Positions 17,409-46,371 of a DNA stretch of 64,000 nucleotides are shown here, in pieces. The stretch spans positions 576,001-640,000 of the forward strand of contig JAWLHY010000003.1 of assembly GCA_041690135.1 (NCBI GenBank). The letters run 5' to 3'. The notes beneath the pieces are model-generated. The model was not told the DNA's origin. It worked only from the letters and a program-made list of their open reading frames with translations, and made no database searches. Source of the stretch: Armatimonadota bacterium. GTDB lineage: Bacteria; Armatimonadota; SYMT01. The translations under genes and the position numbers were made by a program. Each line of letters starts with the position of its first letter. The stretch's first letter is position 1.

Positions 17409-17759
17409 CTATTCATCCTCTCCCCGCACGAGCGGTCCGCGCCAGGCCCGGATCCCTCCGGCCAGGTTGCGAACGTTCCTGAATCCTCGCTGGGCCAGCA
17501 CCCGGCTGGCCTGGGCACTTTTCAGCCCCACATTTCAATAGACCACGACCGGCTCGTCAGGATTCAGGTCCGCGGACACCGCTTCGAGGGTGCCGGACGG
17601 CACGTGTCGCGCGCCCGGCAGATGCCCGGAGGTGAACTGCTCCGTGGCGCGAATGTCCAGCAGAAGCAGCGGCCGAACGGACGCCATTTCCGCCTCCAGC
17701 GCGGCGGCCGAAACTTCCGGAACCGATGGAGAAACGAGAGCGAGTAGACGAGACAGCAT
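17409..17759 (-). CDS. Rhodanese-domain protein, predicted selenoprotein (U75 at the catalytic Cys position), 116 aa
   Basis: LLDIR..F..GHLPGA...PVVVY-TGA(17537-17535)-NVGLKSAQASRVLAQRGFRNVRNLAGGIRAW. Read-through completes the domain and stops 2 nt before the next start. Confidence 0.85.
17493..17511 (-). promoter_or_regulatory. Candidate bacterial SECIS hairpin (rhodanese)
   Basis: GGCCAGC-CGGGU-GCUGGCC; loop begins 30 nt after the UGA, G at loop position 2. Confidence 0.55.
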
Positions 17760-17827
17760 GGGACCTCCTTTGCCCTCAGCTTCTCACCCGGGGATATAAA
17801 CAACTAGACAGGTTTCATGGGCCAGCC

Positions 17828-17842
17828 ATAGAGAAAGGCTAT
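17828..17842. promoter_or_regulatory. LysR-type binding site (T-N11-A)
   Basis: ATAG-AGAAAGG-CTAT dyad in the divergent interval, just before the LysR start. Confidence 0.65.
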
Positions 17843-17846
17843 AGCG

Positions 17847-18776
17847 GTGGAGATCACCTTCCGGCAGCTCCGCTATTTCCGCGCCGTGGCGGAACACGGG
17901 AACTTCACACGGGCGGCCGAGGCGCTGCTGGTGGCGCAGCCCACCGTCAGCCTTGCTATCAAGGACCTGGAGCGGGAGACGAAGGCGGTCCTGTTCGAGC
18001 CCGCGGGCCGCCAGGTGCGGTTGACGGCCGCGGGGCGCCTCCTGCTGCGCCACTGCGAGCGCATCCTGGGGGAAATGGACGCCATCGAGATCTCCCTGAG
18101 TGAGTTGTGGGGTGGGCAGGCAGGGAAGCTGGTCGTGGGGGCGAGCAGCACGCCCGGCACCTATCTGCTGCCCGAAATCCTCGGCAAGTTCCGAGCCGGG
18201 TCCCCACGGGTGGAAGTGGCGCTGGAGGTGACGGATACCGGCGAAGTGCTCCGCCGCGTGCAGGACGGCCGTCTCGACCTCGGGGTTGTCGGGGAAGCCC
18301 CCTTCGATCCGGCGCTCCACATCATGACCTTCCGCCGGGAAAGGCTGGTGCTGATCCTCTCCCCCGAACACCGTCTGGCCCGCCAGCGCTGGGTGACACT
18401 GCCGGACCTCTCCGGAGAGGCTTTTATCTGCCGGGAGGCGGGCTCCAGCACGCGAGAGATCGTCCGGCGCGCCCTGGAAGCACGAGGCATGGAGCTCCCG
18501 GTCACGATGGAGCTGGGAAATACCGAGGCGGTGAAGCGAGCGGTCTCCGCCGGCTTAGGTATCGCCTTCGTTTCGGAGCACGCGGTCGGGCTGGAAGTCC
18601 GGGCCGGCGTGCTCGTCACGCGAGAGATGCCGGACCTGGAGCTGACCCGCGGCCTTTACGTCGTCCGGAGAAGCAGCCTTCCCCTCACCCGGCTGCACGA
18701 GCGCTTCCTGGAGGTGCTCCTCGGCCATGGCGGGGTCTCGCCGCCGGTGCCGCCGGATGGCGCCGCCCCCTTCTGA
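17847..18776 (+). CDS. LysR family regulator, CysL-like subgroup
   Basis: HTH FTRAAEALLVAQPTVS; GASSTPGTYLLP; REAGSSTRE; EAVKRAVSAGLG. Confidence 0.92.
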   Translation: MEITFRQLRYFRAVAEHGNFTRAAEALLVAQPTVSLAIKDLERETKAVLFEPAGRQVRLTAAGRLLLRHCERILGEMDAIEISLSELWGGQAGKLVVGASSTPGTYLLPEILGKFRAGSPRVEVALEVTDTGEVLRRVQDGRLDLGVVGEAPFDPALHIMTFRRERLVLILSPEHRLARQRWVTLPDLSGEAFICREAGSSTREIVRRALEARGMELPVTMELGNTEAVKRAVSAGLGIAFVSEHAVGLEVRAGVLVTREMPDLELTRGLYVVRRSSLPLTRLHERFLEVLLGHGGVSPPVPPDGAAPF

Positions 18777-18823
18777 AGACGATTCCTTGGGCGAATGGGC
18801 GCCGCCCCGGCACTGACGGTATC

Positions 18824-19258
18824 ATGGGTGCAATGCGTCCGTTCCTAAGCCACGCGGTGCGACTGGTCTTCTTACCGGTCGTGGTCCTTCTCCTGGGTTT
18901 CGCGCCCGGACCGTGGTATTGCGCCGATGGTTCTCCGTGCGCGGCGACCGCCGCCGCCTGCTGCTGCGGCTGTGCGGAAGCCGGGGGGACGGAGATCCAC
19001 GTCTGCGAGGACGCCGCCCCCGGCGAGGCGCTTTCCCCGGAAACCTGCGGCTGCTACCGGCTGGCGGTGGCGCCCGAATGCGTACCCGCGGGGGATCGCG
19101 AGCGACCCGACGTGGAGCCGGGCTTGCCGGCCCCGGTTGCGGTGATCGTCCCGCCGTTGCTGGTCGCCTCCCCGCGCGCTACTCCCGCCTCGGCGCACAG
19201 TCCACCTACCCATCTCATCTCCTCCGGGGACCCTCGCGGTCCGCCGCCCATCGGATAG
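18824..19258 (+). CDS. Cys-rich exported leader protein with C-terminal RGPP (DUF2946/arrest-peptide-like)
   Basis: N-terminal hydrophobic segment, WYCADGSPC...CCCGC...CGC, Pro-rich tail ending PRGPPPIG. Confidence 0.7.
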   Translation: MGAMRPFLSHAVRLVFLPVVVLLLGFAPGPWYCADGSPCAATAAACCCGCAEAGGTEIHVCEDAAPGEALSPETCGCYRLAVAPECVPAGDRERPDVEPGLPAPVAVIVPPLLVASPRATPASAHSPPTHLISSGDPRGPPPIG

Positions 19259-19333
19259 AGACCTGCAGTCCGTACCCACGCGACCCGGGTGGTACCGCGT
19301 GAGCAGTGATTCCTATCCATTGGAGATGATCTT

Positions 19334-20254
19334 TTGAGAGCCTATGCAGTTCTGCCGGCCTTGTGGCTGGTTGTAGTATCTGTCGCGGCGCCGGGGCCCG
19401 TGCGCGCCGCAACCCTACTAACCGCACCCCGGATGGCCGTTTGCGCCGTCTGTCGTGAGGGCGAGGAGCCGGTGCTGGCAACGGCGGTCCACCAGGGCCG
19501 CGAGTTCACCTTCTGCAGCGAGGAGTGCAAGAAGACCTTCCTCGCCAACCCGGCCGAGTTCTTGACCCATTCCCCAGCCGAACCGAAGCCTGCAGCCCCT
19601 AACCTTCAACCTTCAACTTCCAACCTTCAACCTGCCAACCCTGATCCCGTTATGCCAAACCGCAGAAGTCCTGGAGGCTCTGCGGCTCCCAGCTGACCGA
19701 GTTGACCCGGTGAGGGAACCTCCGTGCGAGGTTCAGGAGATCTACTGGCAACGCGTTTCAACCTGGGTATCCGGTACATTCCGGACGGAGTGATCGATCG
19801 GGCCAAATGGCGGAACACCCTGATGTACCGCCTGAGCCAGGACCTGCAAGCGGGTGTCGAATACAACCCGCTGGCGGATGATGTCGGGCTACTGGTCAAC
19901 TGGCGCGCCCTCCGCGAGACGGAGAATCGTCCGGCGCTTTCATTCGGCACTTCGTCGGACCGGATCGGCACCCCCTACGGGCGGGCTTACTTCGCCACGC
20001 TTTCGAAGGACCTGGAGCCGCGCATCGGGCTGCCCGTCAGCGTGTACGGGGGCGTGCTCTGGGGCTCGTTCGAGGATGAGTTCGTCTTCCCGTTCGGGGC
20101 GAACTTCCGGCTGGGCAACCAGTGGACGTTCACCCCACAGTACGACGGACACGCCTCCCACGGGCTGCTCACCTATTCGTGGGATCGTTACAGCGTCAGC
20201 GGCCTGCTGATCCGCTGGCGCTACCCGGGCGTGGCGTTTAATATCGGCTTCTGA
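19334..20254 (+). CDS. Secreted YHS-domain/beta-barrel fusion, predicted selenoprotein with UxxU (U121, U124), 306 aa
   Basis: Signal peptide and YHS (CAVC...FTFCSEECKKTF). TGA at 19694 and 19703 are in frame with a barrel-like ORF that ends in Phe and has no signal peptide of its own. Confidence 0.7.
19716..19734 (+). promoter_or_regulatory. Candidate SECIS hairpin (YHS-UxxU gene)
   Basis: GAACCUC-CGUGC-GAGGUUC; loop begins 26 and 17 nt after the two UGAs. Confidence 0.6.
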
Positions 20255-20353
20255 ACCCGATCGGTGCTCTCTCTGACACGGAGGGACACAGATTGGACGG
20301 GACGGAACGCAGAAGAACACGGCGGGACCGAGCCGTTCGCGGGCGATGGGGTC

Positions 20354-20422
20354 ACCACGGAGCGCATAGAGACCACGGAGTGGAACCCCTTCCTTCTCCG
20401 AGGTCTCCGTGCGCTCCGTGGT
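20354..20422. repeat. ACCACGGAG...CTCCGTGGT REP-like inverted repeat
   Basis: Repeated (AC)CACGGAG units with reverse-complement copies between convergent genes; related units at 8753-8782. Confidence 0.65.
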
Positions 20423-20432
20423 GATTTCGTTC

Positions 20433-21320
20433 TTAAAAGAACGTCTCGAACGCAAACCGCAGCTCGTAGGGGTAGTCGCTGTGGTCCTGGGCGCCGCTGC
20501 GGGCGACCGGGACGAACACCCCGAACCGGAGCTGGTGATTGCCCTGGATGAACATCTGCGTGACGTGGAACCCGAACAGCCGGTGCCCGTTGTTCGCGTC
20601 GCGCCCGCTGCCCAGCGGGTCGTCCGCGTGGAACTCCCCGTGGATGCCGAAGGCGGTGTTCAGTCCCAGATCGGATGCCTCCACCTGCGGCTTGAACCAC
20701 CGCCCGTAAGCCGCGTCGAACATCAACATATCGCCCATGCGGAAGCCGCCCCCCACGTCGCGGTTCCAGACCACGCTGGCCCAGGTGGTGTCGTCCAGCC
20801 GCTCCAGGTCCCAGGCATACCCCAGCATGATCCCGGGATTGCCCGTCCCGGTCTGCGAGTGCGGGTCGAGGCGCTCCCCGGCGAGGCGGTGGCCGTCGTC
20901 GCCGGTGGGAAGCTTGATCCCATAGAAGATCGACTGCTGCTGATTGACGCCGATCTCCTGCCGCGCGGCGATCCGAGTCTTGGCGCGCAGGCTGAGGTCA
21001 CCCACCCCGGAAACCGTGGTGGAGCGCACCCCGCCTCCCGCCCGCCGCTCGTGGAGCGCGTTGTAGTAGGGGATCATCAGGCGGACGTTCAGCTTCGGAC
21101 TGAAGCCGTAGTCCACCATATACTCCTGCTCGAACATCCGCATCCGCTCGCCGCCCCGGCGGACAGTACCCGCGTCGAAGTATTTGAACTTCACTTCCGG
21201 GTGAATGACGCCAAACCCGAAGGTGATCGGCGTCTCCCCCCAGAGCGGCTCATGCGCCCGGGCCGGGGTAGCCCCAAGCAGCAGCGCCGCCAGGAGGCCG
21301 ATGCGTAGCATGCAATTCAT
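20433..21320 (-). CDS. Putative outer-membrane beta-barrel transporter
   Basis: Signal peptide with mature N-terminal His (A-HEP), SGVGDLSLR, GIKLPTG, QTGTG, C-terminal Phe. Confidence 0.75.
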   Translation of the reverse strand: MNCMLRIGLLAALLLGATPARAHEPLWGETPITFGFGVIHPEVKFKYFDAGTVRRGGERMRMFEQEYMVDYGFSPKLNVRLMIPYYNALHERRAGGGVRSTTVSGVGDLSLRAKTRIAARQEIGVNQQQSIFYGIKLPTGDDGHRLAGERLDPHSQTGTGNPGIMLGYAWDLERLDDTTWASVVWNRDVGGGFRMGDMLMFDAAYGRWFKPQVEASDLGLNTAFGIHGEFHADDPLGSGRDANNGHRLFGFHVTQMFIQGNHQLRFGVFVPVARSGAQDHSDYPYELRFAFETFF

Positions 21321-21332
21321 CGGATCGCCTCC

Positions 21333-21884
21333 TTATCGCTTCGGCCTCTTGTCTTCGGCGCCGTAGATCGCGGTGACCGCCAGGGAGCCCTTGCTGTCCG
21401 GACCCTGCGGATCGGGTTTCCAGAGCCCTTCCACCTCGACCTGGTCACCTACATGCCGGTTCAGCTGCACAGCAGTGTCCGGGTCCTCTTTCGCAGCCAC
21501 CACAGAGAGCGAGGTGGGGGATTTCATGCCGTCCAATTCGAGGAGCAATGTGTCTCCCCGTTTTACGACGGTGCCGGAGACGACCAACTCCACCTGGTCC
21601 TCGATCGGCTTGTAGCCGGCCTCCCGGATCTTCTCGAGCATCTTCGGGATCTCGGGCCAGGCACCGGGCTTCACCTTTACCTCCATGTGCGGAGGTCGAA
21701 GAATCAACTTGGATTGAGCAACGCCATCCAGGCGCTGCAGCCCCTTACGGAGCGTAATGCCTCAGGTCGCTCACGTGGCCCCTTTGATACCCAGCTTGAC
21801 GAGCTTGACATCGGCCAGGCCCGGAGAGGCGAGCAAGGAAGTAAGGGCGACGGAAGCCCCGAAGAAGAGAACCTTTCTAAACAT
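21333..21884 (-). CDS. Secreted HMA (MerP/CopZ-like) protein with C-terminal OB-like domain, predicted selenoprotein with UxxU (U38, U41), 183 aa
   Basis: Signal peptide, VKLGIKGAT-TGA(21773)-AT-TGA(21764)-GITLRKGLQRLDGV...IREAGY. This matches the HMA pattern GMTCxxC...L..L.GV...I..AGY. Confidence 0.85.
21720..21753 (-). promoter_or_regulatory. Two tandem candidate SECIS hairpins (HMA-UxxU gene)
   Basis: GCUCC-GUAA-GGGGC (loop 22 nt after UGA1) and AGCGCC-UGGAU-GGCGUU (loop 31 nt after UGA2). Confidence 0.5.
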
Positions 21885-21967
21885 GCGCAGTCGATCCAAT
21901 CCAGTTCCCGCGCCGGGAACAGTCACGCCGATCCATGCGGATGGCATAGGGAGTGGGGATGAAATGG

Positions 21968-22097
21968 ATGTTGTTGGAAAACCCACGGATGTCATGGGCC
22001 ACAGGACCGTAGGGAATGTGACGCCGTTCCATTCCGCTGGTCCGGCACTTGATCCCGTGGCGCCAAGAGTGCGCAGTCCGGGTTTCCCAACAGCAAC
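21968..22097 (-). ncRNA. Candidate structured 5' leader RNA
   Basis: Long closing stem UGCUGUUGGGAAACCC/GGGUUUUCCAACAACA enclosing GCACU/AGUGC and GGACC/GGUCC plus GGAAUG/CAUUCC stems. Confidence 0.4.
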
Positions 22098-22189
22098 CGT
22101 AAAGATCCCCTCCGGCAATCCTGACCCGCATCCCGGTGAGATTCCGGGGCGAAGGGCGGAGCACGCCGGAGTTTGGAGCAGTGGAGGGA

Positions 22190-22678
22190 CTACGCAGTGG
22201 GCGGGGCTCGTGATGGCCCCAAAGAGAGGAGCGGAGGCGGGCTATGCCCCAGCGGATCAGCGGGGCGGGTACCGAACGTCGCCGTCAGCAGAGGGGGCGA
22301 CAGGTGAGCCGGCGGCAACAAACCGTCGGGAGCCGACTCGGGGTGTGAGGTCGTGGAGGTTCGCAGCGAGGGCGCGGCCGGCCGGGAAGAGACGATGAAC
22401 CGGCAGTGATCGCCGGTAGAAATCTGGGCTCCCGGACCCGGAGGCGCAGCCGCCAGCCCGGGATACCGGCCATGTCCGCAGCGAAGTTGCACCGGTGAGA
22501 CGCAGCAGGAAGCAGCTTCTACCCCGGCGGTACGGTCGTCCTTCGCGCAGTGGTACCCCCGGCTGTCGGCCACGCAGGGAGTGCCGTCCGGGCAGGACCA
22601 GTACGCGGCAAAGGGTGCGACCGGTCCCAGGACCAGCGTCAGGATCAGCAGTATCGCCAGGAGCAGCCGTCTCATCAT
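22190..22678 (-). CDS. Cys-rich exported leader protein with C-terminal RAPP (DUF2946/arrest-peptide-like)
   Basis: Signal peptide, WSCPDGTPC...HC...SCC...C..HC, ends PSRAPPTA. Confidence 0.75.
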   Translation of the reverse strand: MMRRLLLAILLILTLVLGPVAPFAAYWSCPDGTPCVADSRGYHCAKDDRTAGVEAASCCVSPVQLRCGHGRYPGLAAAPPGPGAQISTGDHCRFIVSSRPAAPSLRTSTTSHPESAPDGLLPPAHLSPPLLTATFGTRPADPLGHSPPPLLSLGPSRAPPTA

Positions 22679-22883
22679 GGGTAAGCGAGACCGGAAAGGA
22701 TCCGTCTCTGCTTAACCATACGGCACCCTCGGTCCCGGCGTCATCGCGAACGTGACAGTCGCGGGCACCTCTTTCCGTCCTAACTCCGCTGAAGGCCTCG
22801 AGCGAGTTCGGACGATCCGCATCCTGGGAAATACGACTTTGAAGCGACTCGAACTGAGCTGCGGGAGTGGACTGGAGGTAGGG

Positions 22884-23585
22884 ATGGAACGGGCGCAATT
22901 CTGGAAGGGGCTCGCGATCGGGATCGCGGCCACCCTGCTGGCGGCCGTTCTGATCATGCTAGTTTCGCTAACGGTGATGAGCGCGAACCAGGATGCAGGT
23001 GGTATCCCTCCGATGAACGGCGCCCGGCATGAGGATCCTCCCACGCGCCGCGAGACGAATGGCGGGATGATGGACCCGGACGGCATGATGGGCGGCGGCA
23101 GGATGATGGACGGCATGCCGCCCTGGATGATGAGCCGGCCGGATACCGGCGCGGCGGGTGGCGGCCCGGAGATGATGCGGGACATGCGGACCATCCGCCA
23201 ACTTCTGACCCAGCATGAGAAGATCGAGCGTTACCTGTGGGAGATCCCCGGCGGGGTCCGCGCCGTGACGACCAGCGAAGATCCGCAGGTGGCCCAGGCG
23301 ATCCGCACGCATGTCCGCCAGATGAAGGAGCGGCTCGAGCAGGGGCAGCCGATCCGGATGATGGACCCCCTCTTCCGCGAGCTCTTCCGGCATCACGAGA
23401 AGATCAACATACAGGTCGAAGAGGTGCCGGGCGGCGTACGCGTGACGGAAACCTCGCAGGACCCACAGGTGACGGCGCTTATCCGCCAGCATGCAAACCG
23501 GGCCGTCTCCGAGTTCGTGGAGCGGGGCATGCCGCGGGCCATGGAGCCGACGCCGCTGCCGCCTGGCTATGAGACCGGCCGGTGA
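22884..23585 (+). CDS. Membrane-anchored Met-rich hypothetical protein
   Basis: One TM segment, GGMMDPDGMMGGGRMMDGM, two internal repeats (HEKI....IPGGVR..TSEDP.V...IR.H). Confidence 0.75.
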   Translation: MERAQFWKGLAIGIAATLLAAVLIMLVSLTVMSANQDAGGIPPMNGARHEDPPTRRETNGGMMDPDGMMGGGRMMDGMPPWMMSRPDTGAAGGGPEMMRDMRTIRQLLTQHEKIERYLWEIPGGVRAVTTSEDPQVAQAIRTHVRQMKERLEQGQPIRMMDPLFRELFRHHEKINIQVEEVPGGVRVTETSQDPQVTALIRQHANRAVSEFVERGMPRAMEPTPLPPGYETGR

Positions 23586-23617
23586 GCGGCCGGTGTGCAC
23601 CCCCACTCCAGTCAGGC

Positions 23618-24700
23618 TCAGAACTGCGAGAAGAGCAGTCCGCCCGCCAGCCCCAACACCAGGACGAACAGGCCCAGGCAGGCCGCCGCGCGATAGGAGC
23701 CCAGCACCTTCCCCAGCATCCAGAGGGAGGGGAAGCTGACCGAGGGCAGCACCACCAGCAGCGCCACGGCCGGGCCTTCGCCCATTCCGGCCCGGGTAAA
23801 CTCCGAGACCCAGAGGACTTCCGTGAAGGTCGGGACCATCAGCAGGGTCCCGAGCAGGGAGGCCGCCGCGGTGGGCAGCAGCCCGTTGCCGAAGCTCCGC
23901 GCCACCGCTTCCACCGGCAGCGCGGTCTTGAGCAGCCCGATCAGGAGAAAGCCGAGCAGCAGCATCGGCAGGACCATCCGGGCGATGGCGGCGGTCTGGG
24001 CCAGCCAGCGAGCGAGCATCTCGCCGACGGAGGTATCCGGCGGCGGACCTACCGGACAGACTTCCTCTTCCTGCTTGCCCGGTATCAACCGGCTCGCCAG
24101 GTACGTGGCGCCCAGGGCAGCGGCCACTCCCAGAACCAGCCGGGCCACGGCCAGCTTTACCGGCAGCAACTCGAAGGCGAGGATGAGGGTGACGGTGTTC
24201 AGCGCCGGCGCGGTGACGAAGTAAGCCATGGCCGCACCCCGTCCGGCGCCGGAGGCCCGCAGCCCCGCGGTAGCTCCCACCGCGCAGCAGGAGCAGAACA
24301 TACTCGGGAGCCCCATGATTAGGCCCGCAAACTGCTGCCGGAACCCGTTTCCGCCCAGATGTCGCCGGATCAACTCCGGCAGAAAGGCCTGGACCGCGCC
24401 GCCGATGAAGAGGCCGAGCAGGGTCGCCGACCAGACCGCATTCACATAATCGACGGTGTAGAGGAACGGCAAGGCCCACTGCGGTGCGTGCTGAAGATCC
24501 AGCGAGAGCGGAAACTTCGTGCCCAGGGGAGTGACGTTGACGATCCCCAGCTTGTTCAGCAGTGAGAGGATGCGGTACTGGAACACCAGCCCGAACAACA
24601 CCGCGAAGACGCCGAACACGACCCCATTGCGCTGGCGACGACTGAGAGGGGTGGGCCGGACGCTCTCCGGCTCTGGCATGGGGGCTGCAAGCGTGGACAT
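23618..24700 (-). CDS. Predicted permease (DUF318/ArsP_1 family)
   Basis: Multi-TM; PSMFCSCC, YFVTAPALN, LPSVSFPSL. Confidence 0.8.
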   Translation of the reverse strand: MSTLAAPMPEPESVRPTPLSRRQRNGVVFGVFAVLFGLVFQYRILSLLNKLGIVNVTPLGTKFPLSLDLQHAPQWALPFLYTVDYVNAVWSATLLGLFIGGAVQAFLPELIRRHLGGNGFRQQFAGLIMGLPSMFCSCCAVGATAGLRASGAGRGAAMAYFVTAPALNTVTLILAFELLPVKLAVARLVLGVAAALGATYLASRLIPGKQEEEVCPVGPPPDTSVGEMLARWLAQTAAIARMVLPMLLLGFLLIGLLKTALPVEAVARSFGNGLLPTAAASLLGTLLMVPTFTEVLWVSEFTRAGMGEGPAVALLVVLPSVSFPSLWMLGKVLGSYRAAACLGLFVLVLGLAGGLLFSQF

Positions 24701-25123
24701 CCCGGAGTGGACCCTCTGGAACCTCCCGGCTATTTCAGTAAACCGCGCGGGAGGTGGTGAGTGAAGCGACGGCCTGGGCCACTCGGCACCCGGCCGGACT
24801 GTCGCGACGACTATTCACTTCACCATACCGGCCCGACCCCAATCCTTCCAATCAAAATCCTCGATGGGGAGGGAGATGAGCTATCGAGGGTCGCTATTCA
24901 GGTGCTCTTCGATAAGGATTAACTGTGCTTGGCACGCAGATCTCGGATCCCCCAAGCGGCCCGGTCTGGGCGCGGCTAGGTGGAGCGAACACCGTCCTGC
25001 CCTTGAGCGTGGAATCGCCGCATGCCGCGGCGTTTTGCGATCCTGGACCCGGTGCCTGATGTGGCTATCGGAGGTCGTCCCAGGATGCGGAAGCCGGGTC
25101 TGATGTCACCCAACTTGCACGAC

Positions 25124-25840
25124 CTAACCGGCCTGGGCCCGCCGGTTCACCTCGTTCCAGTCGATATGGTCGAGGAACTTGCCGACGTAATCGCCCTTGC
25201 GGTTCTGGTAGTCCACGTAGAACGCGTGCTCGTACACGTCGCACACCAGCAAAGGCTGCCCGAACCAGAGCACACCGACCTCGTGGAGATCGCTGGCCAC
25301 GTTATAGAGCTGACCGTTTACGGCGTCGCGCGCCAGGATGCCCCAGCCGTTCGCCGCTATGCAGGTGGCCCGGAAATCATCCATCCATCGCTCCACTGAG
25401 CCGAACCGCTTCGTCAGGGCCATGCGAATATCTTCCTGAGGTCCTGCCTTTTGCGCCGTCATGTTCTCGAAGTAAAGCTCGTGGAGCACGACGCTGTTCG
25501 CCCGATTCACGCGGTCCTTCACCAGCAGGCTGTGGGCCGGCGACGAAAGCGGCTGATTTCCCTCCAGCATCTGGCCGAGCTGCTGCTCGTCACTCAGGAA
25601 TGCCTTGAGTGCGCCCCCGTAGTGGGCCGTGTGGTGCGGCGCGAGCTGAGCGCGCGAGAGGAACCCCGGCAGCTCGGCATAGGGCAGGGGCTTCGGCTTC
25701 GCGGTCACCAACCCCGAATTGGCGGGAAACGCTTTTCCCTCCGCCGCCTCCGCGGGCGCTACCTCGGCGACCATGATGCCGGCGGCGCAGCCGGCAAATC
25801 CACGCAGCACCTCACGGCGAACGATCCTGGGAGTATTCAT
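25124..25840 (-). CDS. Fe/Mn superoxide dismutase family (ChrC-like), Tat-like signal
   Basis: RREVL leader; HHTAHY, NSVVLHELYF, DVYEHAFYVDY. Confidence 0.85.
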   Translation of the reverse strand: MNTPRIVRREVLRGFAGCAAGIMVAEVAPAEAAEGKAFPANSGLVTAKPKPLPYAELPGFLSRAQLAPHHTAHYGGALKAFLSDEQQLGQMLEGNQPLSSPAHSLLVKDRVNRANSVVLHELYFENMTAQKAGPQEDIRMALTKRFGSVERWMDDFRATCIAANGWGILARDAVNGQLYNVASDLHEVGVLWFGQPLLVCDVYEHAFYVDYQNRKGDYVGKFLDHIDWNEVNRRAQAG

Positions 25841-26034
25841 TGCAGCTTCCTTACAGGGCAGAGCATTGACCTACGGCGATTATATACCTCAACAGGCTGT
25901 ACGATCTGCAGCGCTGGCCGGGATCCGGCATACCTAAGCGGAGGAACCTTCCGTAGAAGGGACCAAGATCGAACCGGCCGGGGCTCACGTCGTGCAAGCA
26001 TCTGGAATCCCTGATTCCGTCGCGATTCGAAGTG

Positions 26035-26754: not shown

Positions 26755-26809
26755 GAAGCCGGCGTGCCACCGCGCGGGATGCGCAGAGAATGGGAGTAGG
26801 GTAAGGGGA

Positions 26810-27049: not shown

Positions 27050-27249
27050 CTCTGCCTTCGCCCTGTCTTGCGGCTCGGGAGACGAGCGTCGTGAGCTCGG
27101 ATGAACTCACAAACACTTCCGGGAGATGGCGCAGCCGATTTTGTGCCGTATAAGTGCGCGGAATCGCCTGCGACGCCGGAAACGTGCAACCTAACTCGCT
27201 GGTATGCCAGAATCATACAACGTAAACATGGGTGCTGCGAGAGTGCTCT

Positions 27250-27421: not shown

Positions 27422-27453
27422 TGCGAAGCAGGTCACTTACGGTGGGATGCGCG

Positions 27454-33316: not shown

Positions 33317-33636
33317 CCGGGTCCTTCCTTTCTGGCCCTATCGGGCAACGAAAGGGAACCCCATCGCGGGGTCCCGCGTGGCTCTGCCACGATGATGCTA
33401 TCCGAAGTCGCGGCACCACTGCATGACGGTTGGATTAATAACCGGAGGCGTGAATGCGCTGGACCGTGCCCCTGAAGTGACCAAACATAGCTCTGAAGGG
33501 CAACGGTCGCTCCGTAGTTAACTAGGCTGGTAGTTCTGCCTCCGCATCCACTTCGGTCCGTTATTCAGCCTTCGAAACCAGCGCCTCACTCCCTGCGGGG
33601 GTGCCGGTTCATGGACCCATCTCGAATTAACCCATC

Positions 33637-35646: not shown

Positions 35647-36245
35647 ACTCCGGTTTCCGGAGCCGTCCGCAACGCTTCTCATCCGGATCGCTCTCCCGCA
35701 GGCGGCTGCTTGCCGCCTGCACAGCGAGCGTTCTCTTCGTGGGCGGGATTGCAGCCCACCCCCCACAGGCGCGGGCGGATGCACCGACCGAATATCAGAT
35801 CAAGGCGGCTTTCCTGTTCAACTTCGCGAAGTTCGTGGAATGGCCGGAACGCGCCTTTGCCCGCGCCGACAGTCCGATCGTCATCGGCGTGCTGGGCGAC
35901 GATCCCTTCGGTGCCGATCTGGACCGGCTGGTCCGGGGGAAGCGGATTGAGAATCGTGAACTGGTGATCCGCCGGTACCAGGATGTAGACCGGGCCGCCG
36001 GCGCTCATATCTTGTTCATCAGCGCTTCGGAGCAGCGGCGACTGCCCGCTATTCTGGCCGACCTGCGATCCTCTCCGGTGCTCACCGTGGGTGAGGTGCC
36101 CCAGTTCAACCGCCTGGGCGGCATCATCCAGTTCGCCATGGAGAACCGGAAGGTTCTGTTCGATATCAACCCGGGGGCCGCGGAACGAGCGCGATTGCGG
36201 CTCCGCGCGCAGCTACTTCGTCTTGCCCGGAAATCCGAGTCCTGA
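35634..36245 (+). CDS. YfiR family (DUF4154) periplasmic protein
   Basis: EYQIKAAFLFNFAKFVEWP, FDIN...A...LLRLA. Confidence 0.9.
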   Translation: MAPLNSGFRSRPQRFSSGSLSRRRLLAACTASVLFVGGIAAHPPQARADAPTEYQIKAAFLFNFAKFVEWPERAFARADSPIVIGVLGDDPFGADLDRLVRGKRIENRELVIRRYQDVDRAAGAHILFISASEQRRLPAILADLRSSPVLTVGEVPQFNRLGGIIQFAMENRKVLFDINPGAAERARLRLRAQLLRLARKSES

Positions 36246-36248
36246 TCC

Positions 36249-37820
36249 ATGCTCGTAAGGCACCGGTTCATCAACCTATCCATCCGCTGGAAACTGAGCC
36301 TGATCACCACATTGGTCAGCGTGGTGTCGCTGTTTCTCGCGTGCGGCGCGTTTCTCGCCTACGAGATGTTGATGTTCCGCCACACCACGACGGAGAAAGC
36401 GTCCGCGCTGGCTCGCGTCGTCGCAGCGAACTGCCGGGCAGCCCTGACGTTCGACGATCCCCAGGACGCAGCGGACACCCTGGAGTCACTGTCGGCGGAG
36501 CGTCACATCATTTGCGCCGCGCTTTACAGTCAGGACCGTCAGGTATTTGCCACCTATTGCCGCCCGGACCGGGCGAGCGAGGCAGAAGCTCTCATCCCAC
36601 CCGCTCCGGAGCCGGAAGGGATGCTGTTCCGCGGGGCCCACGGGGAGCTTTTCCAGCGCGTGAGCTTTCATGGAGAGGAGTTAGGGACCGTCTACATCCG
36701 CTCGGACCTGGAGGAAATGCACTCCCGGCTACGCCGCTATCTCGGCATCACAGTGCTCGTTCTGCTCGCGTCCGCGGCGGTGGCGCTGGTCCTTTCCACC
36801 CGGCTTCAGCAGGTCATCTCCAAGCCGCTCCTGCAGCTTTCGGACACCGCTCGCCTGGTCTCGGAACAGAAGGACTATTCGGTGCGCGTGGCGCCCTACA
36901 GCCGGGATGAGATCGGCGTGCTGATCGAGGGCTTCAATGAGATGCTGGCGCAAATCCAGGAGCGGGACGCGGCGCTTCTGGAATCTCAGGAGGAACTAGA
37001 GCACCGCGTGGAGCTCCGGACGCAGGAACTACAACAGGAGATCGCCGAGCGGAAACGGGCGCAAGATGAAGTGCACCAGCTCAATGCCCAGTTGGAAGAG
37101 CGCGTGGCGCAGCGGACCGCGGAGCTCGAGGCAGCGAACAAGGAACTCGAAGCGTTCAGCTACTCTATCTCCCATGACCTGAATGCTCCTCTCCGGGCGA
37201 TGGACGGCTATTCCCGCATCATCCTCGAGGAATATGCCGGCGAGATTCCCGAGGAAGGACGGCGCTACCTGGAACTGGTTCGCGCGAACGCCAACCAGAT
37301 GGGAGAGCTGATCCACGATCTCCTGGCTTTCTCACGTCTCAGCCGGCAGCCGCTCCAGAAAGAGGCCGTCGCTCCACGGGTGATCGTGGAAGAGGTGCTC
37401 GCGGAACTGGAGCTCCAGCGGGGGGACCGGAAACTGGTGGTGCAGGTCGGCGAGCTGCCTACCTGCCGGGCCTCTTCAGCGCTCTTGCGCCAGGTGTACG
37501 CGAACCTCCTCGGTAATGCGTTCAAGTACACCCGCGCTCGGGAGGAAGCCGTGATCGAGATCGGCAGCCAGGAGGAAGACGGATCGACGGTCTACTACGT
37601 GAAAGATAACGGGGTGGGGTTCGATATGCGGTACGCGCACAAGTTGTTCGGGGTATTCCAGCGGCTGCACCGCGCGGAGGAATACGAGGGTACGGGGGTA
37701 GGCCTGGCGATCGTCCAGCGAATCGTGCACCGGCATGGCGGCCGGATCTGGGCGGAAGCAGAGCGAAACCGGGGTGCCGCGTTCTACTTTACGCTGGAAG
37801 GGAGCAAGAACCATGTTTGA
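36249..37820 (+). CDS. Membrane sensor histidine kinase (periplasmic domain, HAMP, HisKA, HATPase)
   Basis: FSYSISHDL, NLLGNAFKY, DNGVGF, GTGVGL. Confidence 0.93.
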   Translation: MLVRHRFINLSIRWKLSLITTLVSVVSLFLACGAFLAYEMLMFRHTTTEKASALARVVAANCRAALTFDDPQDAADTLESLSAERHIICAALYSQDRQVFATYCRPDRASEAEALIPPAPEPEGMLFRGAHGELFQRVSFHGEELGTVYIRSDLEEMHSRLRRYLGITVLVLLASAAVALVLSTRLQQVISKPLLQLSDTARLVSEQKDYSVRVAPYSRDEIGVLIEGFNEMLAQIQERDAALLESQEELEHRVELRTQELQQEIAERKRAQDEVHQLNAQLEERVAQRTAELEAANKELEAFSYSISHDLNAPLRAMDGYSRIILEEYAGEIPEEGRRYLELVRANANQMGELIHDLLAFSRLSRQPLQKEAVAPRVIVEEVLAELELQRGDRKLVVQVGELPTCRASSALLRQVYANLLGNAFKYTRAREEAVIEIGSQEEDGSTVYYVKDNGVGFDMRYAHKLFGVFQRLHRAEEYEGTGVGLAIVQRIVHRHGGRIWAEAERNRGAAFYFTLEGSKNHV

Positions 37821-38256
37821 CGGTCCGGCGGAGGTCCTCCTGGTAGAGGACAATCCTCACGATCTGGAGCTGACGCTGCACGCCTGGAGAAAAGTGGGAA
37901 GCTCAGCCAGAATCCATGTCGCCCGCGACGGCGCGGAAGCACTCGACTTTCTGTTCGGTGGCGGCGAATCCACCACGACAGGGGGTGATCCCAACCCCCG
38001 GGTGGTTCTTCTGGATCTCAAGCTGCCTCTCATATCCGGATTGGAGGTCCTGCGGACGATCAAGAGCGACGCCCGCACCCGCTCGATTCCGGTTGTGGTG
38101 CTCACTTCCTCGAAAGAGGAGTGCGACATCAGCGAGTGTTACGACCTGGGCGTGAACAGCTACATCGTGAAGCCGGTCCGCTCCGAACAGTTCACGAACG
38201 CCGTCCGCGAGCTGGCTTCCTATTGGCTTGCGCTCAACCAGCCTCCCCAGGCCTGA
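37813..38256 (+). CDS. Single-domain response regulator (Rcp-like)
   Basis: LLVEDN, LLDLKLP, LTSS, NSYIVKP. Confidence 0.92.
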   Translation: MFDGPAEVLLVEDNPHDLELTLHAWRKVGSSARIHVARDGAEALDFLFGGGESTTTGGDPNPRVVLLDLKLPLISGLEVLRTIKSDARTRSIPVVVLTSSKEECDISECYDLGVNSYIVKPVRSEQFTNAVRELASYWLALNQPPQA

Positions 38257-38269
38257 CCTCCGGACGACC

Positions 38270-40222
38270 ATGCCTGTTCCTTTACACGTACTCTTCGTCG
38301 AGGACCGCCCCTCGGACGTCGACCTGCTGCTGTTCGAGCTGCGTCGCTCCGGCTACGAGGTTACGTGGCAGCGCGTGGATGAAGAGCCGGATTACCGCGA
38401 GCAGTTGAGGCCGGACCTCGATGTGATCCTGACCGATTACAACCTGCCGCAGTTCGACGCCACGACCGCTCTCCAGATTCTCCACGAGACGGGATTGGAT
38501 ATCCCCTTCATCGTTGTGAGCGCCTCCATCCCCGAGGAGTTCGCGGTGGAAATGATGAAGCAAGGCGCGGCGGACTACCTGCTCAAAGACCGCCTCGGCC
38601 GGTTGGGAGCGGCCATCGACAGCGCGCTGCAGAAGCACCAGGTTCGGGAGGCACGCCGGAAGGCCGAGGAGGCTTTGCGAGAGTCGGAAGCTCGTCATCG
38701 GGCCATTTCAGAGCTTTCTTCGGACTACGCCTATTCTCTCTACATTTCTCCCGACGGCAGTGTGGTCAGCGAGTGGATAACCGATGCCTTCATGCGCATC
38801 ACGGGCTTCACCCTGGACGAGGTTTCAGCTCGCGGAGGGTGGATGAGCCTGGTTCATCCCGCGGACCGCGAACGGCTCGAGTCCCGCTGGCAGGACCTTC
38901 TCGCCGGGTGCTCCACCACAGCGGAGCTGCGGGTCGCCACCCGATCCGGCGGGTTTCGTACTATCCGCGATCGGGCACGCCCGGTCTACGACCCCGCGAC
39001 CGGGCGCGTGCATCGGATCTACGGTGCGGCGGAGGACATCACCCAGCAGCGGCTGCTGGAGGAGCAGCTGCGTCACTCTCAGAAGATGGAAGCGATCGGC
39101 CGGCTGGCCGGGGGAGTCGCCCACGACTTCAACAACACGCTCTCCGTCATTCGGGGCTATACGGAGTTTGCCCTGGAAGATCTGCCTCCGGACACTCCCC
39201 TCCGCGAAGATCTGGAAGAGATTCGTAAAGCCGCCGACCGCGCGAGCAGCCTTACCCGCCAACTGCTCGCCTTCAGTCGCAAGCAAGTACTCGCCCCGCA
39301 TGATGTTTCGATCCGTGAGTTGATCCAGGGAGTCGAAAGGATGACCCGCCGCGTGATCGGCGAGGACATCGAGCTGGAGACCCGGTTCTCGCCGGGCCTG
39401 GACACGGTCTTCATCGACTCGGGACAGATGGAGCAGGTGCTGCTGAACCTCGTGGTGAACGCACGAGACGCAATGCCCGGAGGAGGGCGCCTGACCATTT
39501 CCACCGGGAGTGTCGAGCCCGACGAGTTGTTCATTGCCCGCCACCCCGAGGCGCGTCCGGAGCCTTATGTGGTCGTTGAGGTAAGCGATACCGGCTGCGG
39601 AATGACCCGTGAAGTGCTGCAGCGGGTTTTCGAACCTTTCTTCACCACGAAAGAGGCCGGCAAGGGCACCGGTCTCGGCCTGGCTACTGTCTACGGTACC
39701 ATCCAGCAGAGCGGCGGCTTTATCACGGTCTACAGCGAACCGAACTTGGGAACGACGTTCAAGCTCTATCTCCCCTGCATCACCTCCCGACCGCCGGAAA
39801 CCGGCTCCGCTACCGGCACCAGCGGCGCCGGCCATGCGTCGGAGACGGTCCTTCTGGTGGAAGACGAGGCGGAAGTCCGTAAACTCACGTTCCGTTTGCT
39901 CTCCCGGTATGGCTACCGTATTCTCGAAGCTGCGTCGGCGGAGGAGGCCCTGGCCCTGGCGCGACACCACCGGAACCCGATCCACTTGCTGTTGACCGAC
40001 CTGGTGCTGCCCGGAATGCCCAGTCGCGAGTTGATTGAGGAGCTCCGGCGCATGCATCCCGAGGCCCGGTTGCTCCTGACCTCGGGTTATCCGGATGAGG
40101 TGCTGGTCGGTCGCGGGCTGATTCAGCCGGGCGAGATGCTGCTCCAGAAGCCCTTCACCGCGCAGGACCTTGCCCGCAAGGTACGCGGGGCCCTGGACCG
40201 GATTCCGGACCCACTTCGCTAG
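38270..40222 (+). CDS. Hybrid histidine kinase (REC-PAS-HisKA-HATPase-REC)
   Basis: QKMEAIGRLAGGVAHDFNN, FEPFFTTK, GTGLGL, two receiver domains. Confidence 0.93.
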   Translation: MPVPLHVLFVEDRPSDVDLLLFELRRSGYEVTWQRVDEEPDYREQLRPDLDVILTDYNLPQFDATTALQILHETGLDIPFIVVSASIPEEFAVEMMKQGAADYLLKDRLGRLGAAIDSALQKHQVREARRKAEEALRESEARHRAISELSSDYAYSLYISPDGSVVSEWITDAFMRITGFTLDEVSARGGWMSLVHPADRERLESRWQDLLAGCSTTAELRVATRSGGFRTIRDRARPVYDPATGRVHRIYGAAEDITQQRLLEEQLRHSQKMEAIGRLAGGVAHDFNNTLSVIRGYTEFALEDLPPDTPLREDLEEIRKAADRASSLTRQLLAFSRKQVLAPHDVSIRELIQGVERMTRRVIGEDIELETRFSPGLDTVFIDSGQMEQVLLNLVVNARDAMPGGGRLTISTGSVEPDELFIARHPEARPEPYVVVEVSDTGCGMTREVLQRVFEPFFTTKEAGKGTGLGLATVYGTIQQSGGFITVYSEPNLGTTFKLYLPCITSRPPETGSATGTSGAGHASETVLLVEDEAEVRKLTFRLLSRYGYRILEAASAEEALALARHHRNPIHLLLTDLVLPGMPSRELIEELRRMHPEARLLLTSGYPDEVLVGRGLIQPGEMLLQKPFTAQDLARKVRGALDRIPDPLR

Positions 40223-41205
40223 CGATCCAGCTCCAGGTCCAGAAACGCCTGCCCCACCTGCGGATCGAATTCCGATCCCAGGCCGGCGGCGAGGATGTCT
40301 CGGGCCTGGGAACGTGGCCGCGCCGGACGATAGGCGCGATCCGCGGTCATTGCCTCATAGGCATCGACGACCCGGATGACACGGGAAAGATAGGGAATCC
40401 GGTTGCCGCTGAGGCGATCCGGATATCCCGTGCCGTCTGTGTTTTCGTGATGATGGCGGATAATGGTCGCCACTTCCGAGAGCTGGGCTACTTTCCCGGC
40501 AATCTCGGCGCTCCGAATCGGATGCATCCGCATCAAGGCCCATTCTTCTTCGGTCAGGGGGCCGGCTTTACGGAGGACGTGCTCCGGAACGGCGATCTTT
40601 CCGACGTCGTGGAGAAGCGCAGAGAATTCCAGTACGCGCAGGCGCGCCTCCGGCATCCCCAGTTTGTGCCCAAAGTGGAGCGATATCCGGGTTACCTCGG
40701 CTGAATGACAGGCGGTGTAGGAGTCTTTGGCGTCCACTGCGGCCACCAGGGCTTGAATAGTGCCGTGGAGCATCTCCGTAGTGAGGTCGAGCGTCCGCTG
40801 CCGGTCCCATTCCAGGCGGGCCAGGTTCTGCTCGATCACCCGGTTGAGCTGGGGCATCTCCACCGGTTTGGCGAGGAAGTCGGTCGCACCGGCACCCATG
40901 GCCGAGCGAGCGAGGCTGACCTCGTCGTAGGCGGTGAGCAAGATAAACGGCAAACCTTTCAGGTGCTGGTTGACGAACCCGAGCAGGTCCAGCCCCGTAC
41001 CATCTCCCATCTCATAATCGCAGATCACCAGGCTAAAAGGGCTCGAGGCCAAACGCTCTCGAGCCGCACTGACGCCGGTTGCCGTCTCGGCGTCATATCC
41101 CATCCGGCGCAGCCCCCGGACGAGAAACTTGCGAACCGCTTCATCATCATCCACCACCAGGATCGGCGGCGTGAATGGTACAGAGGTGAGGGGGGATACA
41201 GTCAT
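40219..41205 (-). CDS. Response regulator with HD-GYP phosphodiesterase domain
   Basis: REC domain, LHDVGK, HHENTDGTGYP. Confidence 0.92.
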   Translation of the reverse strand: MTVSPLTSVPFTPPILVVDDDEAVRKFLVRGLRRMGYDAETATGVSAARERLASSPFSLVICDYEMGDGTGLDLLGFVNQHLKGLPFILLTAYDEVSLARSAMGAGATDFLAKPVEMPQLNRVIEQNLARLEWDRQRTLDLTTEMLHGTIQALVAAVDAKDSYTACHSAEVTRISLHFGHKLGMPEARLRVLEFSALLHDVGKIAVPEHVLRKAGPLTEEEWALMRMHPIRSAEIAGKVAQLSEVATIIRHHHENTDGTGYPDRLSGNRIPYLSRVIRVVDAYEAMTADRAYRPARPRSQARDILAAGLGSEFDPQVGQAFLDLELDR

Positions 41206-41414
41206 TCATCACCATTTCAGGGTTCGGGATCCGCGCGACGACGCTCCCTTCCTGTATACCGAACCGGCTCCCCTCTTAGCACACCGGTCTCTCCGCGGCA
41301 GCCGCCTTCCCAGTGGGAACGCCATCCCGGCAACCCTTCGCTTGGGGTAGACTCGCGTCGCGCCTCCCGAAGGTTACCGGGGCGGTCGGGGCAAATCATG
41401 GTCTCATGTTCACC

Positions 41415-42593
41415 ATGCTCCGCGCCTGCACTGCCGCCGTCCTCCTGTTCGGAACCAGCGCGCTCCTCGCGAGTTGCGGCGAGCCACCCGTTGCCCGAGC
41501 CGCCACGGAGCGCGTGGAGCTGGTTCGGGTCCCGGACGGCGGCATCCAGCCGCAGGCGGTTGCCGATGAGCGCGGTACGGCGCACGTGGTTTATCTGAAG
41601 GGGGATCCCGGCGCCTGCGACGTGTTTTACACCCGGCGCACCGGGGCGAGTTGGTCTGTCCCCCTGCGCGTGAACCGCCGCCCGGGGAGCGCGGTGGCGA
41701 TGGGCACGATCCGAGGTCCGCAACTCGCCCTGGGCAAGAACGGCAGCGTCCACGTCGTCTGGTTTGGCTCCCGCCAATCCGGGCTGCAGGGTCCGGAAGG
41801 CAGTGCGCCCCTCCTCTACGCTCGGCTTTCTGAAGGCGGCGGGGCCTTCGAGCCGGAGCGGAACCTGATGCAGGCCAGCACCGCCCTCGACGGTGGTCCG
41901 GGGGTGGCGGCCGACGTCATGGGGAACGTTTATGTTGCCTGGCAGGCCGCCGCGCGCAAGGGCGAGGGCGAAGAAAACCGGCGCCTCTGGATCGCCCGCT
42001 CTACTGATGACGGCAAGAGCTTTTCCCAGGAGACCCCCGCGGGCACCGAGCCGACCGGCGCCTGTCCCTGCTGCAGCACAGAGGTCTTTGCCGACCGCAA
42101 GGGCCATTTATATACCCTCTACCGGATGGCCGCGAACCGGACGGAGCGGGATATGGTGCTCGTGACCTCCGCGAACCAGGGCCGCACCTTCCAGACCACG
42201 CGGATCGATCCGTGGCCGGTGGATTCCTGACCGATGAGCAGCGAGGCCCTCGTCGAGGGCCCGAACGGCGTGTCGGCTGCCTGGGAAACGCAGGGGCAGG
42301 TGAAGTTCGCCCGGGTGGAGCCCGGCGCGGCAAAACTCTCCACCCCCACCGCGGCACCAGGGACCGGCCGAAACCGGAAGCACCCGGTGCTCGCGGTGAA
42401 CGCAAAGGGAGAGACCCTGCTGGCCTGGACGGAGGGAACCGGCTGGAACCGCGGCGGCGCCCTGGCGTGGCAGCTATTCGACGCTGCGGGCCGTCCGCTG
42501 CCGGAGAAGGGCCGCATCGAGGGCGGCATCCCGGTGTGGGGCCTCGCCGCGACGGTGACCCGGCCGGATGGCGGCTTTCTGCTCATCCATTAA
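41415..42593 (+). CDS. BNR/Asp-box lipoprotein, predicted selenoprotein (U272), 392 aa
   Basis: Lipobox LASC, Asp boxes STDDGKSF and SANQGRTF, GACPCC, then WPVDS-TGA(42228)-PMSS continuing in frame to 42593. Confidence 0.8.
42245..42261 (+). promoter_or_regulatory. Candidate SECIS hairpin (BNR gene)
   Basis: GGCCCU-CGUCG-AGGGCC; loop begins 20 nt after the UGA. Confidence 0.6.
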
Positions 42594-46348: not shown

Positions 46349-46371
46349 CTATTCCTCACCAAGCGTTCACG

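Follow-up and report, generated by a model that had tools for sequence, protein, structure and literature searches.

The stretch analysed here, referred to as the window, comprises 64,000 nucleotides (nt) of the genome of an Armatimonadota bacterium (GenBank assembly GCA_041690135.1, contig JAWLHY010000003.1, positions 576,001 to 640,000), and four of its genes are best read as genes of selenoproteins, among them a double-selenocysteine protein with a predicted outer-membrane barrel. Together they carry six in-frame TGA codons, at 17537 (-), 19694 and 19703 (+), 21773 and 21764 (-) and 42228 (+), all of which, as far as computation can show it, encode selenocysteine (Sec, U); this is very likely for every one of the four genes, if slightly less so for the first codon (U38) of the gene for an HMA-like protein. 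The evidence that exceeds chance lies in the alternation of TGA and Cys in the aligned columns, in the covariation of a hairpin downstream of the codons and in the co-occurrence with selA. To the explanation as a whole, in which the HMA-like protein, its 295-aa neighbour OMP295 and the barrel protein are in addition inferred to form an envelope metal module, we assign a probability of about 0.8. The four genes, read through, are as follows (lengths in amino acids, aa):

17409..17759, minus strand: rhodanese-domain selenoprotein, 116 aa, with U75 (codon 17535-17537) replacing the active-site Cys, motif U-N-V-G (UxxG)
19334..20254, plus strand: YHS/UxxU/barrel fusion, 306 aa, with signal peptide, YHS domain, Pro-rich linker, the motif U121-P-S-U124-P-G-E-G and a predicted 12-stranded barrel
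21333..21884, minus strand: exported HMA-like selenoprotein, 183 aa, with G-A-T-U38-A-T-U41-G in place of GMTCxxC and an extra C-terminal domain of about 90 aa
41313/41406..42593, plus strand: BNR-like beta-propeller lipoprotein, 426 aa, with the lipobox L-L-A-S-C and U306 (codon at 42228, numbered from 41313) in the invariant [C/U]-P-M-S-S

In-frame TGA codons and selenocysteine decoding

A preliminary description of this DNA had proposed that the four split genes continue in frame across TGA, and the six codons were found exactly where it had placed them, read-through joining the separate open reading frames (ORFs); the rhodanese, barrel and HMA-like genes do lie within about 4.5 kb (17409-21884). 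Its expectation that standard annotation would call such genes fragments is borne out by the protein-database entries for the window's own genes, which measure 176 aa (P0156), 274 aa (P0275) and 113 aa (P0395).

The genomes of 60 relatives were searched in six frames with each read-through protein, and the matches were aligned. All six TGA columns hold either TGA or Cys in the homologs, with coding conserved on either side, an outcome of the homolog comparison suggested earlier that supports the selenoprotein claim. The U75 column of the rhodanese, which is the catalytic Cys of C-x-x-G-x-[RK]-S, is U in the source genome (G000) and in G005 and Cys in the 11 others of 13 aligned homologs, and the U306 column of the BNR-like protein (context W-x-[IV]-x-x-[U/C]-P-M-S) is U in G000, G004 and G005 and Cys in the remaining 11 of 14. 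Nine loci of HMA relatives besides the window's own display UxxU in four cases (GATUATUG in G002, G003, G004a and G005), CxxU in three (G004b, G018, G007), UxxC in one (G041) and CxxC in one, the P-type ATPase domain of G058. Among the 11 relatives' loci covering the barrel motif, 10 read P-x-U-x-x-U-P-G-E-G and one reads CPGU (CxxU). The sole residue other than Cys or Sec seen at either motif column of the barrel family is a W in P0007 (C-V-G-W-P-G-E-G), which occupies the second of the two columns and is encoded by TGG, a codon differing from TGA in a single base.

SelB-type decoding is available in the source genome, which comprises 9.1 Mb in 25 contigs with 65% G+C and holds the window at C3:576001-640000. 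The search for selA, selB, selD and tRNA-Sec, which the preliminary description had recommended, recovered all four: a single tRNA-Sec with the anticodon TCA was detected by ARAGORN (C1:1152265-1152363), and selA (566.6 bits), selB (383.6 bits) and selD (369.6 bits) all exceed the NCBI curated cut-offs. Outside the window, selA and selD form a cluster with tRNA-Sec immediately after it (C1:1149453-1152363; loci L001 and L012), and selB is situated on C8. The selD gene has one in-frame TGA itself, and its product is hence taken as a Sec-containing selenophosphate synthetase. By profile search, selA is present in 40 of 61 relatives, including all 10 with a TGA-containing barrel gene, and none of the 21 relatives without selA gave a barrel-domain match; the five distant genomes found to carry a UxxU barrel have selA as well (5/5).

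That the TGAs are real stops, in pseudogenes, split genes or through assembly errors, or are read as Trp, Gly or Cys, is highly improbable: gene callers do split the four genes, and variant tRNAs inserting Cys at Sec codons have been described in some bacteria, but many independent genomes share these TGA codons and conserve the coding on either side of them, TGA forms occur only where selA was found, the aligned residue is always Cys except for the W in P0007, and TGA is the commonest ordinary stop of the window, ending 21 of 40 composition-supported ORFs of at least 150 aa and also the barrel gene itself (20252-20254).

A composition scan for in-frame TGAs, based on the G+C content of third codon positions, recovered only two of the six known codons, together with two further TGAs at 37334 (-) and 37905 (-), which were taken as lying in antisense frames of a histidine-kinase gene (36249-37820, +) and rejected. 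TGA read-through of a second island of the window (43.8-49.6 kb) gave no further convincing selenoprotein. Among the sequencing runs listed for this DNA, one shared a small portion (0.08) of its words and none was of RNA, which speaks neither for nor against read-through.

Hairpins downstream of the UGA codons

A 2026 review (PMC13188914; cited throughout for its text and table, without the supplementary tables) models the bacterial Sec insertion sequence (SECIS) as a hairpin with a loop of 3-9 nt, a stem of 4-16 base pairs (bp), a G in the first two loop positions, a distance of 16-37 nt from the UGA and a minimum free energy of at most -7.5 kcal/mol. This model fits five of the six UGAs, namely those of the rhodanese and BNR genes, both barrel UGAs and U41 of the HMA-like gene. 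The hairpins are:

17493..17511, minus strand: rhodanese gene, stem of 7 bp (-12.7 kcal/mol) with the loop CGGGU, at 30 nt from the UGA
19716..19734, plus strand: barrel gene, stem of 7 bp (-8.7 kcal/mol) with the loop CGUGC, at 26 nt from U121 and 17 nt from U124
21718..21753, minus strand: HMA-like gene, tandem hairpins after both UGAs
21740-21753, minus strand: first of the tandem hairpins, 5 bp, GUAA loop, 22 nt after U38, -7.0 kcal/mol, absent from the preliminary description
21718-21738, minus strand: second of the tandem hairpins, 8 bp, UGGAU loop, 31 nt after U41 and 40 nt after U38, -14.1 kcal/mol
42245..42261, plus strand: BNR gene, stem of 7 bp (-12.4 kcal/mol) with a loop of 3 nt (GUC) in the minimum-energy fold, at 21 nt from the UGA

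The earlier statement that each gene has a hairpin loop starting 17-31 nt after a UGA holds for all four genes, but not for the strong hairpin as seen from U38, which stands 40 nt away. Similarly, of four loops described as 5-nt Y-G-N-N-N, CGGGU, CGUGC and UGGAU stand, whereas CGUCG in the BNR gene requires the closing C-G pair to be opened.

Hairpin stability alone is weak evidence in a genome of 65% G+C, for which reason comparisons between homologs were used. For the barrel, 79 family sequences were aligned without gaps from the second UGA, and a helix of seven pairs (columns 14-20/26-32) was compared with slid partners: 82.4% of the cells are paired (25-60% in the slid versions), the covariation score is 0.292 (at most 0.110), 46 cells have changed on both sides (7-14), and not one of 500 shuffles reaches the observed values, figures which overstate independence in so far as the sequences are related. 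Pair 15:31, for example, is UA in 30 sequences, CG in 22, AU in six and UG in six; the largest clade keeps a mismatch at position 17:29, and one sub-lineage uses a hairpin shifted by 5 nt. A strict hairpin rule was satisfied by 9 of 11 relatives compared with 219 of 2360 control Cys codons.

In the BNR and rhodanese genes taken together, hairpins of at least 7 bp with a G-containing loop follow all five Sec forms compared with 2 of 21 Cys forms. Taken separately, BNR hairpins of 7-8 bp were found in 3/3 Sec forms and 1/10 Cys forms, and rhodanese hairpins of at least 7 bp in 2/2 Sec forms (7 bp also in the Sec homolog of G005) and 1/11 Cys forms. Both hairpins of the HMA-like gene are kept in eight homologs according to RNAalifold, pair 41:57 being AU in four, CG in three and GC in one. 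They also persist in homologs with Cys at the first position and U at the second (L031, L019, L023), so that the first hairpin is not simply the SECIS element of the first UGA; a rule of one hairpin per UGA does not explain why both are kept in these second-U-only relatives.

Compared with the 265 Cys codons of the window as controls, hairpins at least as stable occur in 2.6% of cases for the rhodanese, 0.8% for HMA U41, 10.9% for HMA U38 and 3% for the BNR gene. Several results of this analysis speak against the Sec assignment. The energy of the barrel hairpin is unremarkable, 56-58% of the same control codons being as stable, and a relaxed hairpin rule was satisfied by 31% of control Cys codons. 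U38 is a borderline case, with its near hairpin at -7.0 kcal/mol instead of the required -7.5 and the strong one 40 nt away instead of 16-37 nt. RNAalifold returned no consensus structure for the first ungapped alignment of 11 barrel sequences, because the hairpin sits 0-5 nt apart between sub-lineages, and a scan of the whole window with Rfam, where bacterial SECIS elements are not captured, gave no match at gathering thresholds.

The four selenoproteins and their families

The barrel protein combines a YHS domain (PF04945, 31.8 bits with a cut-off of 30.3, residues 54-79) with both Sec residues located about 40 residues after this domain and not inside it. No other Pfam family than YHS was matched at E <= 0.1, PcoB/CopB included, and no NCBIfam model at the same level, including NF041384, the YHS selenoprotein with GxU. 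The AlphaFold model of residues 110-306 presents a closed barrel with a mean confidence (pLDDT) of 77 and a predicted template-modelling (TM) score of 0.76, and Foldseek matched it to FapF (E 7.5e-5), KdgM (TM 0.57 on the query and 0.64 on the target, root-mean-square deviation 4.2), NanC and OEP21. On this model the protein is predicted to be a 12-stranded outer-membrane beta-barrel. FapF, KdgM and NanC belong to the same 12-stranded fold class, with only 11-14% sequence identity and no family model matching, and lack both the Cys/Sec motif and the GTSSDRIGTP loop conserved in the family of the window's barrel.

With respect to a metal-binding role, the copper channel PcoB/CopB offers a parallel in layout, an outer-membrane barrel with a disordered periplasmic N-terminal region; this His/Met-rich domain carries metal ligands in PcoB and is needed for Cu efflux (PMC12509749). 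The motif-bearing N-terminal segment of the window's barrel is likewise unmodelled. However, the PcoB ligands form a poorly conserved stretch as opposed to the strictly conserved UxxUPGEG, and PcoB is not among the Foldseek matches listed for the window's barrel.

The size of the family became apparent when 185,579 species genomes were scanned with the pattern, which gave 493 confirmed stretches. The best 80 loci, which were examined, comprise 70 UxxU, eight CxxU and two unresolved cases and come from Acidobacteriota (mostly Pyrinomonadaceae), Armatimonadota, Vulcanimicrobiota/Xenobia, Abditibacteriaceae, Verrucomicrobiota and Planctomycetota. Cys-only forms exist as well (PTCAGCAGEAR), some of them fused to several YHS/TRASH domains (P0024 and P0034 by sequence, P0034 also by Pfam scan). 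At the protein level the family counts 301 representatives (E <= 1e-3) in a library clustered at 50% identity and at least 3,559 clusters at 90% identity (E <= 1e-5); among the best 120 of the latter, none has a Pfam domain or any name beyond 'hypothetical protein', and most are about 176 aa long, the calls beginning at the first start codon that follows the second TGA. A cultured carrier, Armatimonas rosea, is represented in the family by a 'hypothetical protein' of 170 aa (P0199).

In-frame reading upstream of the motif reveals that motif and barrel form a constant C-terminal module, to which variable N-terminal modules are joined. In 64 of the best 80 loci the UxxU is preceded by a conserved ORF of some 310 aa, terminated by the first TGA, and all four of the proteins scanned among these (4/4) matched AhpC-TSA/Redoxin in Pfam (1e-17 to 1e-25) with the CxxC intact; the best NCBIfam matches of this thioredoxin are ResA and TlpA, below the equivalog cut-offs. 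In most members outside the window's lineage a module akin to the TlpA/ResA thiol:disulfide reductases stands where the window's protein has YHS. Some members carry YHS like the window's, those of Xenobia have a TRASH-like CxxC domain plus thioredoxin, and others possess a signal peptide only. In Pyrinomonadaceae and allies (L105, L110, L116-L171) the TlpA-like thioredoxin is preceded by an N-terminal domain of about 120 aa with V-V-C-C-A-[ED]-C-W-A-E-A-D-R, about 900 nt upstream of the motif, for which Pfam gave no match.

Several contigs with members of the family (L092, L094, L097, L102, L103, L108, L140, L148, L165 and L167) are titled Actinomycetota, Selenomonadaceae, Burkholderiales or Clostridia. 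The taxonomic labels of these bins may be unreliable: L092 and L094 encode barrel proteins with 74-75% identity to that of the window, for which the nearest match with a named source is from Armatimonadota.

Sec in outer-membrane barrels is known already from GSU2204, of the MtrB-PioB barrel family, and from a TonB-dependent receptor of the FCYXU type, both in the review's table (PMC13188914); these are much larger, have one Sec each and bear other motifs. No model of Pfam or of NCBIfam release 20 covers the window's barrel, the family appears neither in that table nor in the deep-Sep paper, each taken without supplementary tables, and the literature search returned no description of a UxxU barrel family. 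The double-Sec barrel family therefore appears to be unlisted in these catalogues, as far as their main parts extend, and so does the propeller lipoprotein in its Sec form.

In the HMA-like protein, U38 and U41 align to the Cys pair of GMTCxxC in the solved domains of ATP7B, Bacillus subtilis CopA and MerP (E 1e-10 to 1e-3). It has to be held against a single metal system that the HMA domain (PF00403) scores 24.7 bits, just under the Pfam cut-off of 24.8, and that NF041115 (36.9 bits over profile positions 3-68 of 74, cut-off 95) and MerP (39.1 bits) stay far under theirs. By the NCBI rule the protein is consequently a relative of NF041115 and not a member. The review lists NF041115 as a UxxU 'metal-binding protein' with two Sec (PMC13188914), and an HMA-type UxxU protein is therefore a known kind of selenoprotein. 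The probable HMA fold is shared with MerP and CopZ, and Sec at both metal-binding Cys positions with NF041115, from which the window's protein differs by its signal peptide and the extra C-terminal domain. The group is small, with 16 database clusters found, all of them fragment calls of 112-145 aa.

For the BNR-like lipoprotein BNR_2 (PF13088) reached 24.4 bits, under its cut-off of 31.4. AlphaFold gave a model with a pLDDT of 88.8, and propeller lectins and sialidases were matched at the level of the fold (E about 1e-11, TM about 0.55); BNR/sialidase-like propellers and the Photorhabdus PLL/PHL lectins share this predicted fold. A profile search of solved structures with the family yielded only weak matches to designed propellers, and no metal-related homology was found. 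Across 39 sequences C251, C253, C254, C306(U) and P307-M308-S309-S310 are invariant, and C-x-C-C combined with [C/U]-P-M-S-S is not known as a feature of sialidases or lectins. The great majority of the homologs have Cys and are of full length; Sec variants are recognisable in three short entries (273-274 aa) within the best 120 of 3,685 clusters.

The rhodanese, which is probably cytoplasmic, is well supported as such by Pfam (PF00581, 70.9 bits with a cut-off of 22.2). NF041203, form 3 of the rhodanese-related (seleno)proteins with CxU, reached 38.7 bits with a cut-off of 115, and the motif here is UxxG. Forms 2 and 4 of the rhodanese-like selenoproteins in the review's table bear UxxG (PMC13188914) and likewise consist of a single rhodanese domain with Sec at the catalytic Cys, a likeness of motif and not an assignment to either form; the UxxG rhodanese is a known kind of selenoprotein. 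A second rhodanese-like match in the source genome (C5:442496-442783, -) contains one in-frame TGA inside an open frame of 548 aa and may represent another selenoprotein.

Gene neighbourhood and putative function

The genes surrounding the four selenoprotein genes, and those of a second island of metal type (43845-50455), include the following:

17847..18776, plus strand: LysR-type regulator, divergent from the rhodanese gene (Pfam HTH_1 and LysR_substrate)
18824..19258, plus strand: CysRich1, Cys-rich secreted protein upstream of the barrel gene, no Pfam or NCBIfam match
20433..21320, minus strand: OMP295, exported protein of 295 aa ending in Phe, conserved neighbour of the HMA-like gene
22190..22678, minus strand: CysRich2, Cys-rich secreted protein
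22752-23585, plus strand: Met-rich protein of 277 aa with the stretch MMDPDGMMGGGRMMDGMPPWMM, no family match
23618..24700, minus strand: ArsP_1-family permease (Pfam ArsP_1, 101.8 bits), distantly like the SO_0444 Cu/Zn efflux and SaoE transporters
44468-44929: YHS protein, second island
45014-46348: protein with YHS, YtkA and cupredoxin, second island
46372-47304: Phenol_MetA_deg-like outer-membrane protein, second island
Second island, further gene: unassigned protein of 576 aa
48953-49507: MerB-like protein, second island, 28 bits with a cut-off of 27

OMP295, which matched no Pfam or NCBIfam model, is probably an outer-membrane protein. The permease scored 72.4 bits with NF033936 and 51.3 bits with NF040736, both below the cut-offs, and a DsbB homolog and a superoxide dismutase are also situated in the window's island. 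Met-rich stretches like that of the 277-aa protein are typical of Cu(I)-binding periplasmic proteins. Upstream of the MerB-like ORF, and in its frame, lies a Cys-rich stretch with CCC motifs like those of CysRich1.

Whether the four genes belong to one system has to be judged from their linkage in relatives. OMP295 and the HMA-like selenoprotein gene are adjacent in six loci of five relatives (G002, G003, two copies in G004, G005 and the more distant G018), and in G003 and G018 the barrel gene is next after them. Homologs of CysRich2 link the HMA-like and BNR genes in four relatives, since they adjoin the former in G003 and G005 and the homolog of the latter in G004 and G006; barrel, CysRich2 and BNR genes share one contig in G006, and a CysRich1 homolog adjoins the barrel gene in L093/L035. 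These arrangements stand against the view that the four genes are unrelated replacements of Cys by Sec, close together in the window by coincidence and without a common system. This view nevertheless retains a considerable, if minor, share of the probability: the four homologs of G005 are found on four different contigs, the rhodanese belongs to a separate conserved unit with the LysR regulator and a fatty-acid hydroxylase (the order recurs in G005), the BNR gene is 19 kb away from the HMA-like gene, and selA is common in the phylum. When the island proteins were compared with the 80 wider loci by tblastn, the HMA-like protein and OMP295 were detected in one locus each and the permease, the Met-rich protein, the LysR regulator and the rhodanese in none, which indicates that only close relatives conserve the entire island.

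The preliminary description had gone further and proposed a mostly exported, Sec-based system for soft metals. Part of this is sustained, in that inspection of the N-termini suggests a signal peptide or a lipobox in three of the four proteins, the HMA-like, OMP295 and barrel genes are linked, and the UxxU of the HMA-like protein falls on the GMTCxxC columns; the rhodanese with its own unit and the BNR protein without metal homology do not fit. A soft-metal role is accordingly plausible for the HMA-like protein, OMP295 and the barrel and unsupported for the other two. We regard it as about an even proposition that the former three form a module of the envelope which acts on a soft, thiophilic metal, most likely of the Cu(I) class. 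In such a module the two selenolates would constitute a tight, low-pKa chelating site, reversibly oxidised, at the periplasmic mouth of the barrel, which would be fed by YHS or HMA domains and, in other lineages, would be kept reduced by the fused TlpA/ResA-like thioredoxin. The position of U38 and U41 on metal-binding columns is consistent with it, as are the YHS fusions here and in other members and the neighbours, among them the ArsP/SO_0444-like permease and the Met-rich protein. Together with DsbB and with the YHS, cupredoxin and MerB-like proteins of the second island, these neighbours suit the handling of metals and redox chemistry in the envelope; none of them was detected beside the barrel in the 80 wider loci.

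Two observations run counter to a metal site of this kind: the first 28 residues of the barrel model, which carry the motif, are unmodelled (pLDDT < 50), and the ORF of some 310 aa that precedes the motif in 64 of 80 loci, TlpA/ResA-like in the four scanned, fits a redox relay equally well. Since most members of the barrel family are fused to such a thioredoxin and not to YHS, a redox function is a serious rival. The codons would still be Sec, but the UxxU barrel would be a device in which the fused thioredoxin cycles a diselenide/diselenol pair at the outer membrane, with envelope or external disulfides, peroxides or chalcogen oxyanions as substrates and YHS as an accessory in a minority of members. 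In keeping with it, the scanned thioredoxins have an intact CxxC and ResA and TlpA as their best NCBIfam matches, DsbB and superoxide dismutase are encoded in the island, and most of the families seen in the review's table have thioredoxin-fold or other redox domains (PMC13188914). On the other hand, YHS/TRASH fusions recur in Sec and Cys forms, and the conserved partner in the window's lineage is the HMA-like protein. TlpA, besides, reduces copper-site cysteines, so that the thioredoxin fusion does not separate the two functions and is neutral between them. All in all, we consider a purely redox device less likely than the metal module.

Beyond the metal module of the window's lineage, it can be proposed tentatively that the UxxUPGEG barrel in general is an unrecognised outer-membrane machine. 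Its Sec pair, at the periplasmic mouth, would be recycled by a TlpA-like thioredoxin or fed by YHS/HMA chaperones and might pass a thiophilic cargo through the outer membrane, for instance Cu(I), Hg(II), Ag(I) or a species of chalcogen.

Selenoprotein families detected by Cys/Sec pairs are a routine finding, and the barrel family is worthy of attention for its size, its double Sec, its predicted outer-membrane location and its modular fusions. Its recognition restores hundreds of full-length proteins with thioredoxin or YHS modules, and the prokaryotic selenoproteome gains a double-Sec family of the outer membrane together with a Sec form of a propeller lipoprotein. The barrel gene furthermore offers a clean test case for the service of two UGA codons, 9 nt apart, by a single SECIS hairpin. 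The phyla carrying the UxxU barrel (Acidobacteriota, Armatimonadota, Vulcanimicrobiota, Verrucomicrobiota and Planctomycetota) are those of soil and freshwater, and a selenium-dependent function of the envelope is indicated in abundant, poorly studied soil phyla; if the proposed transport by the barrel proves true, selenium would be a structural requirement for an envelope transport step.

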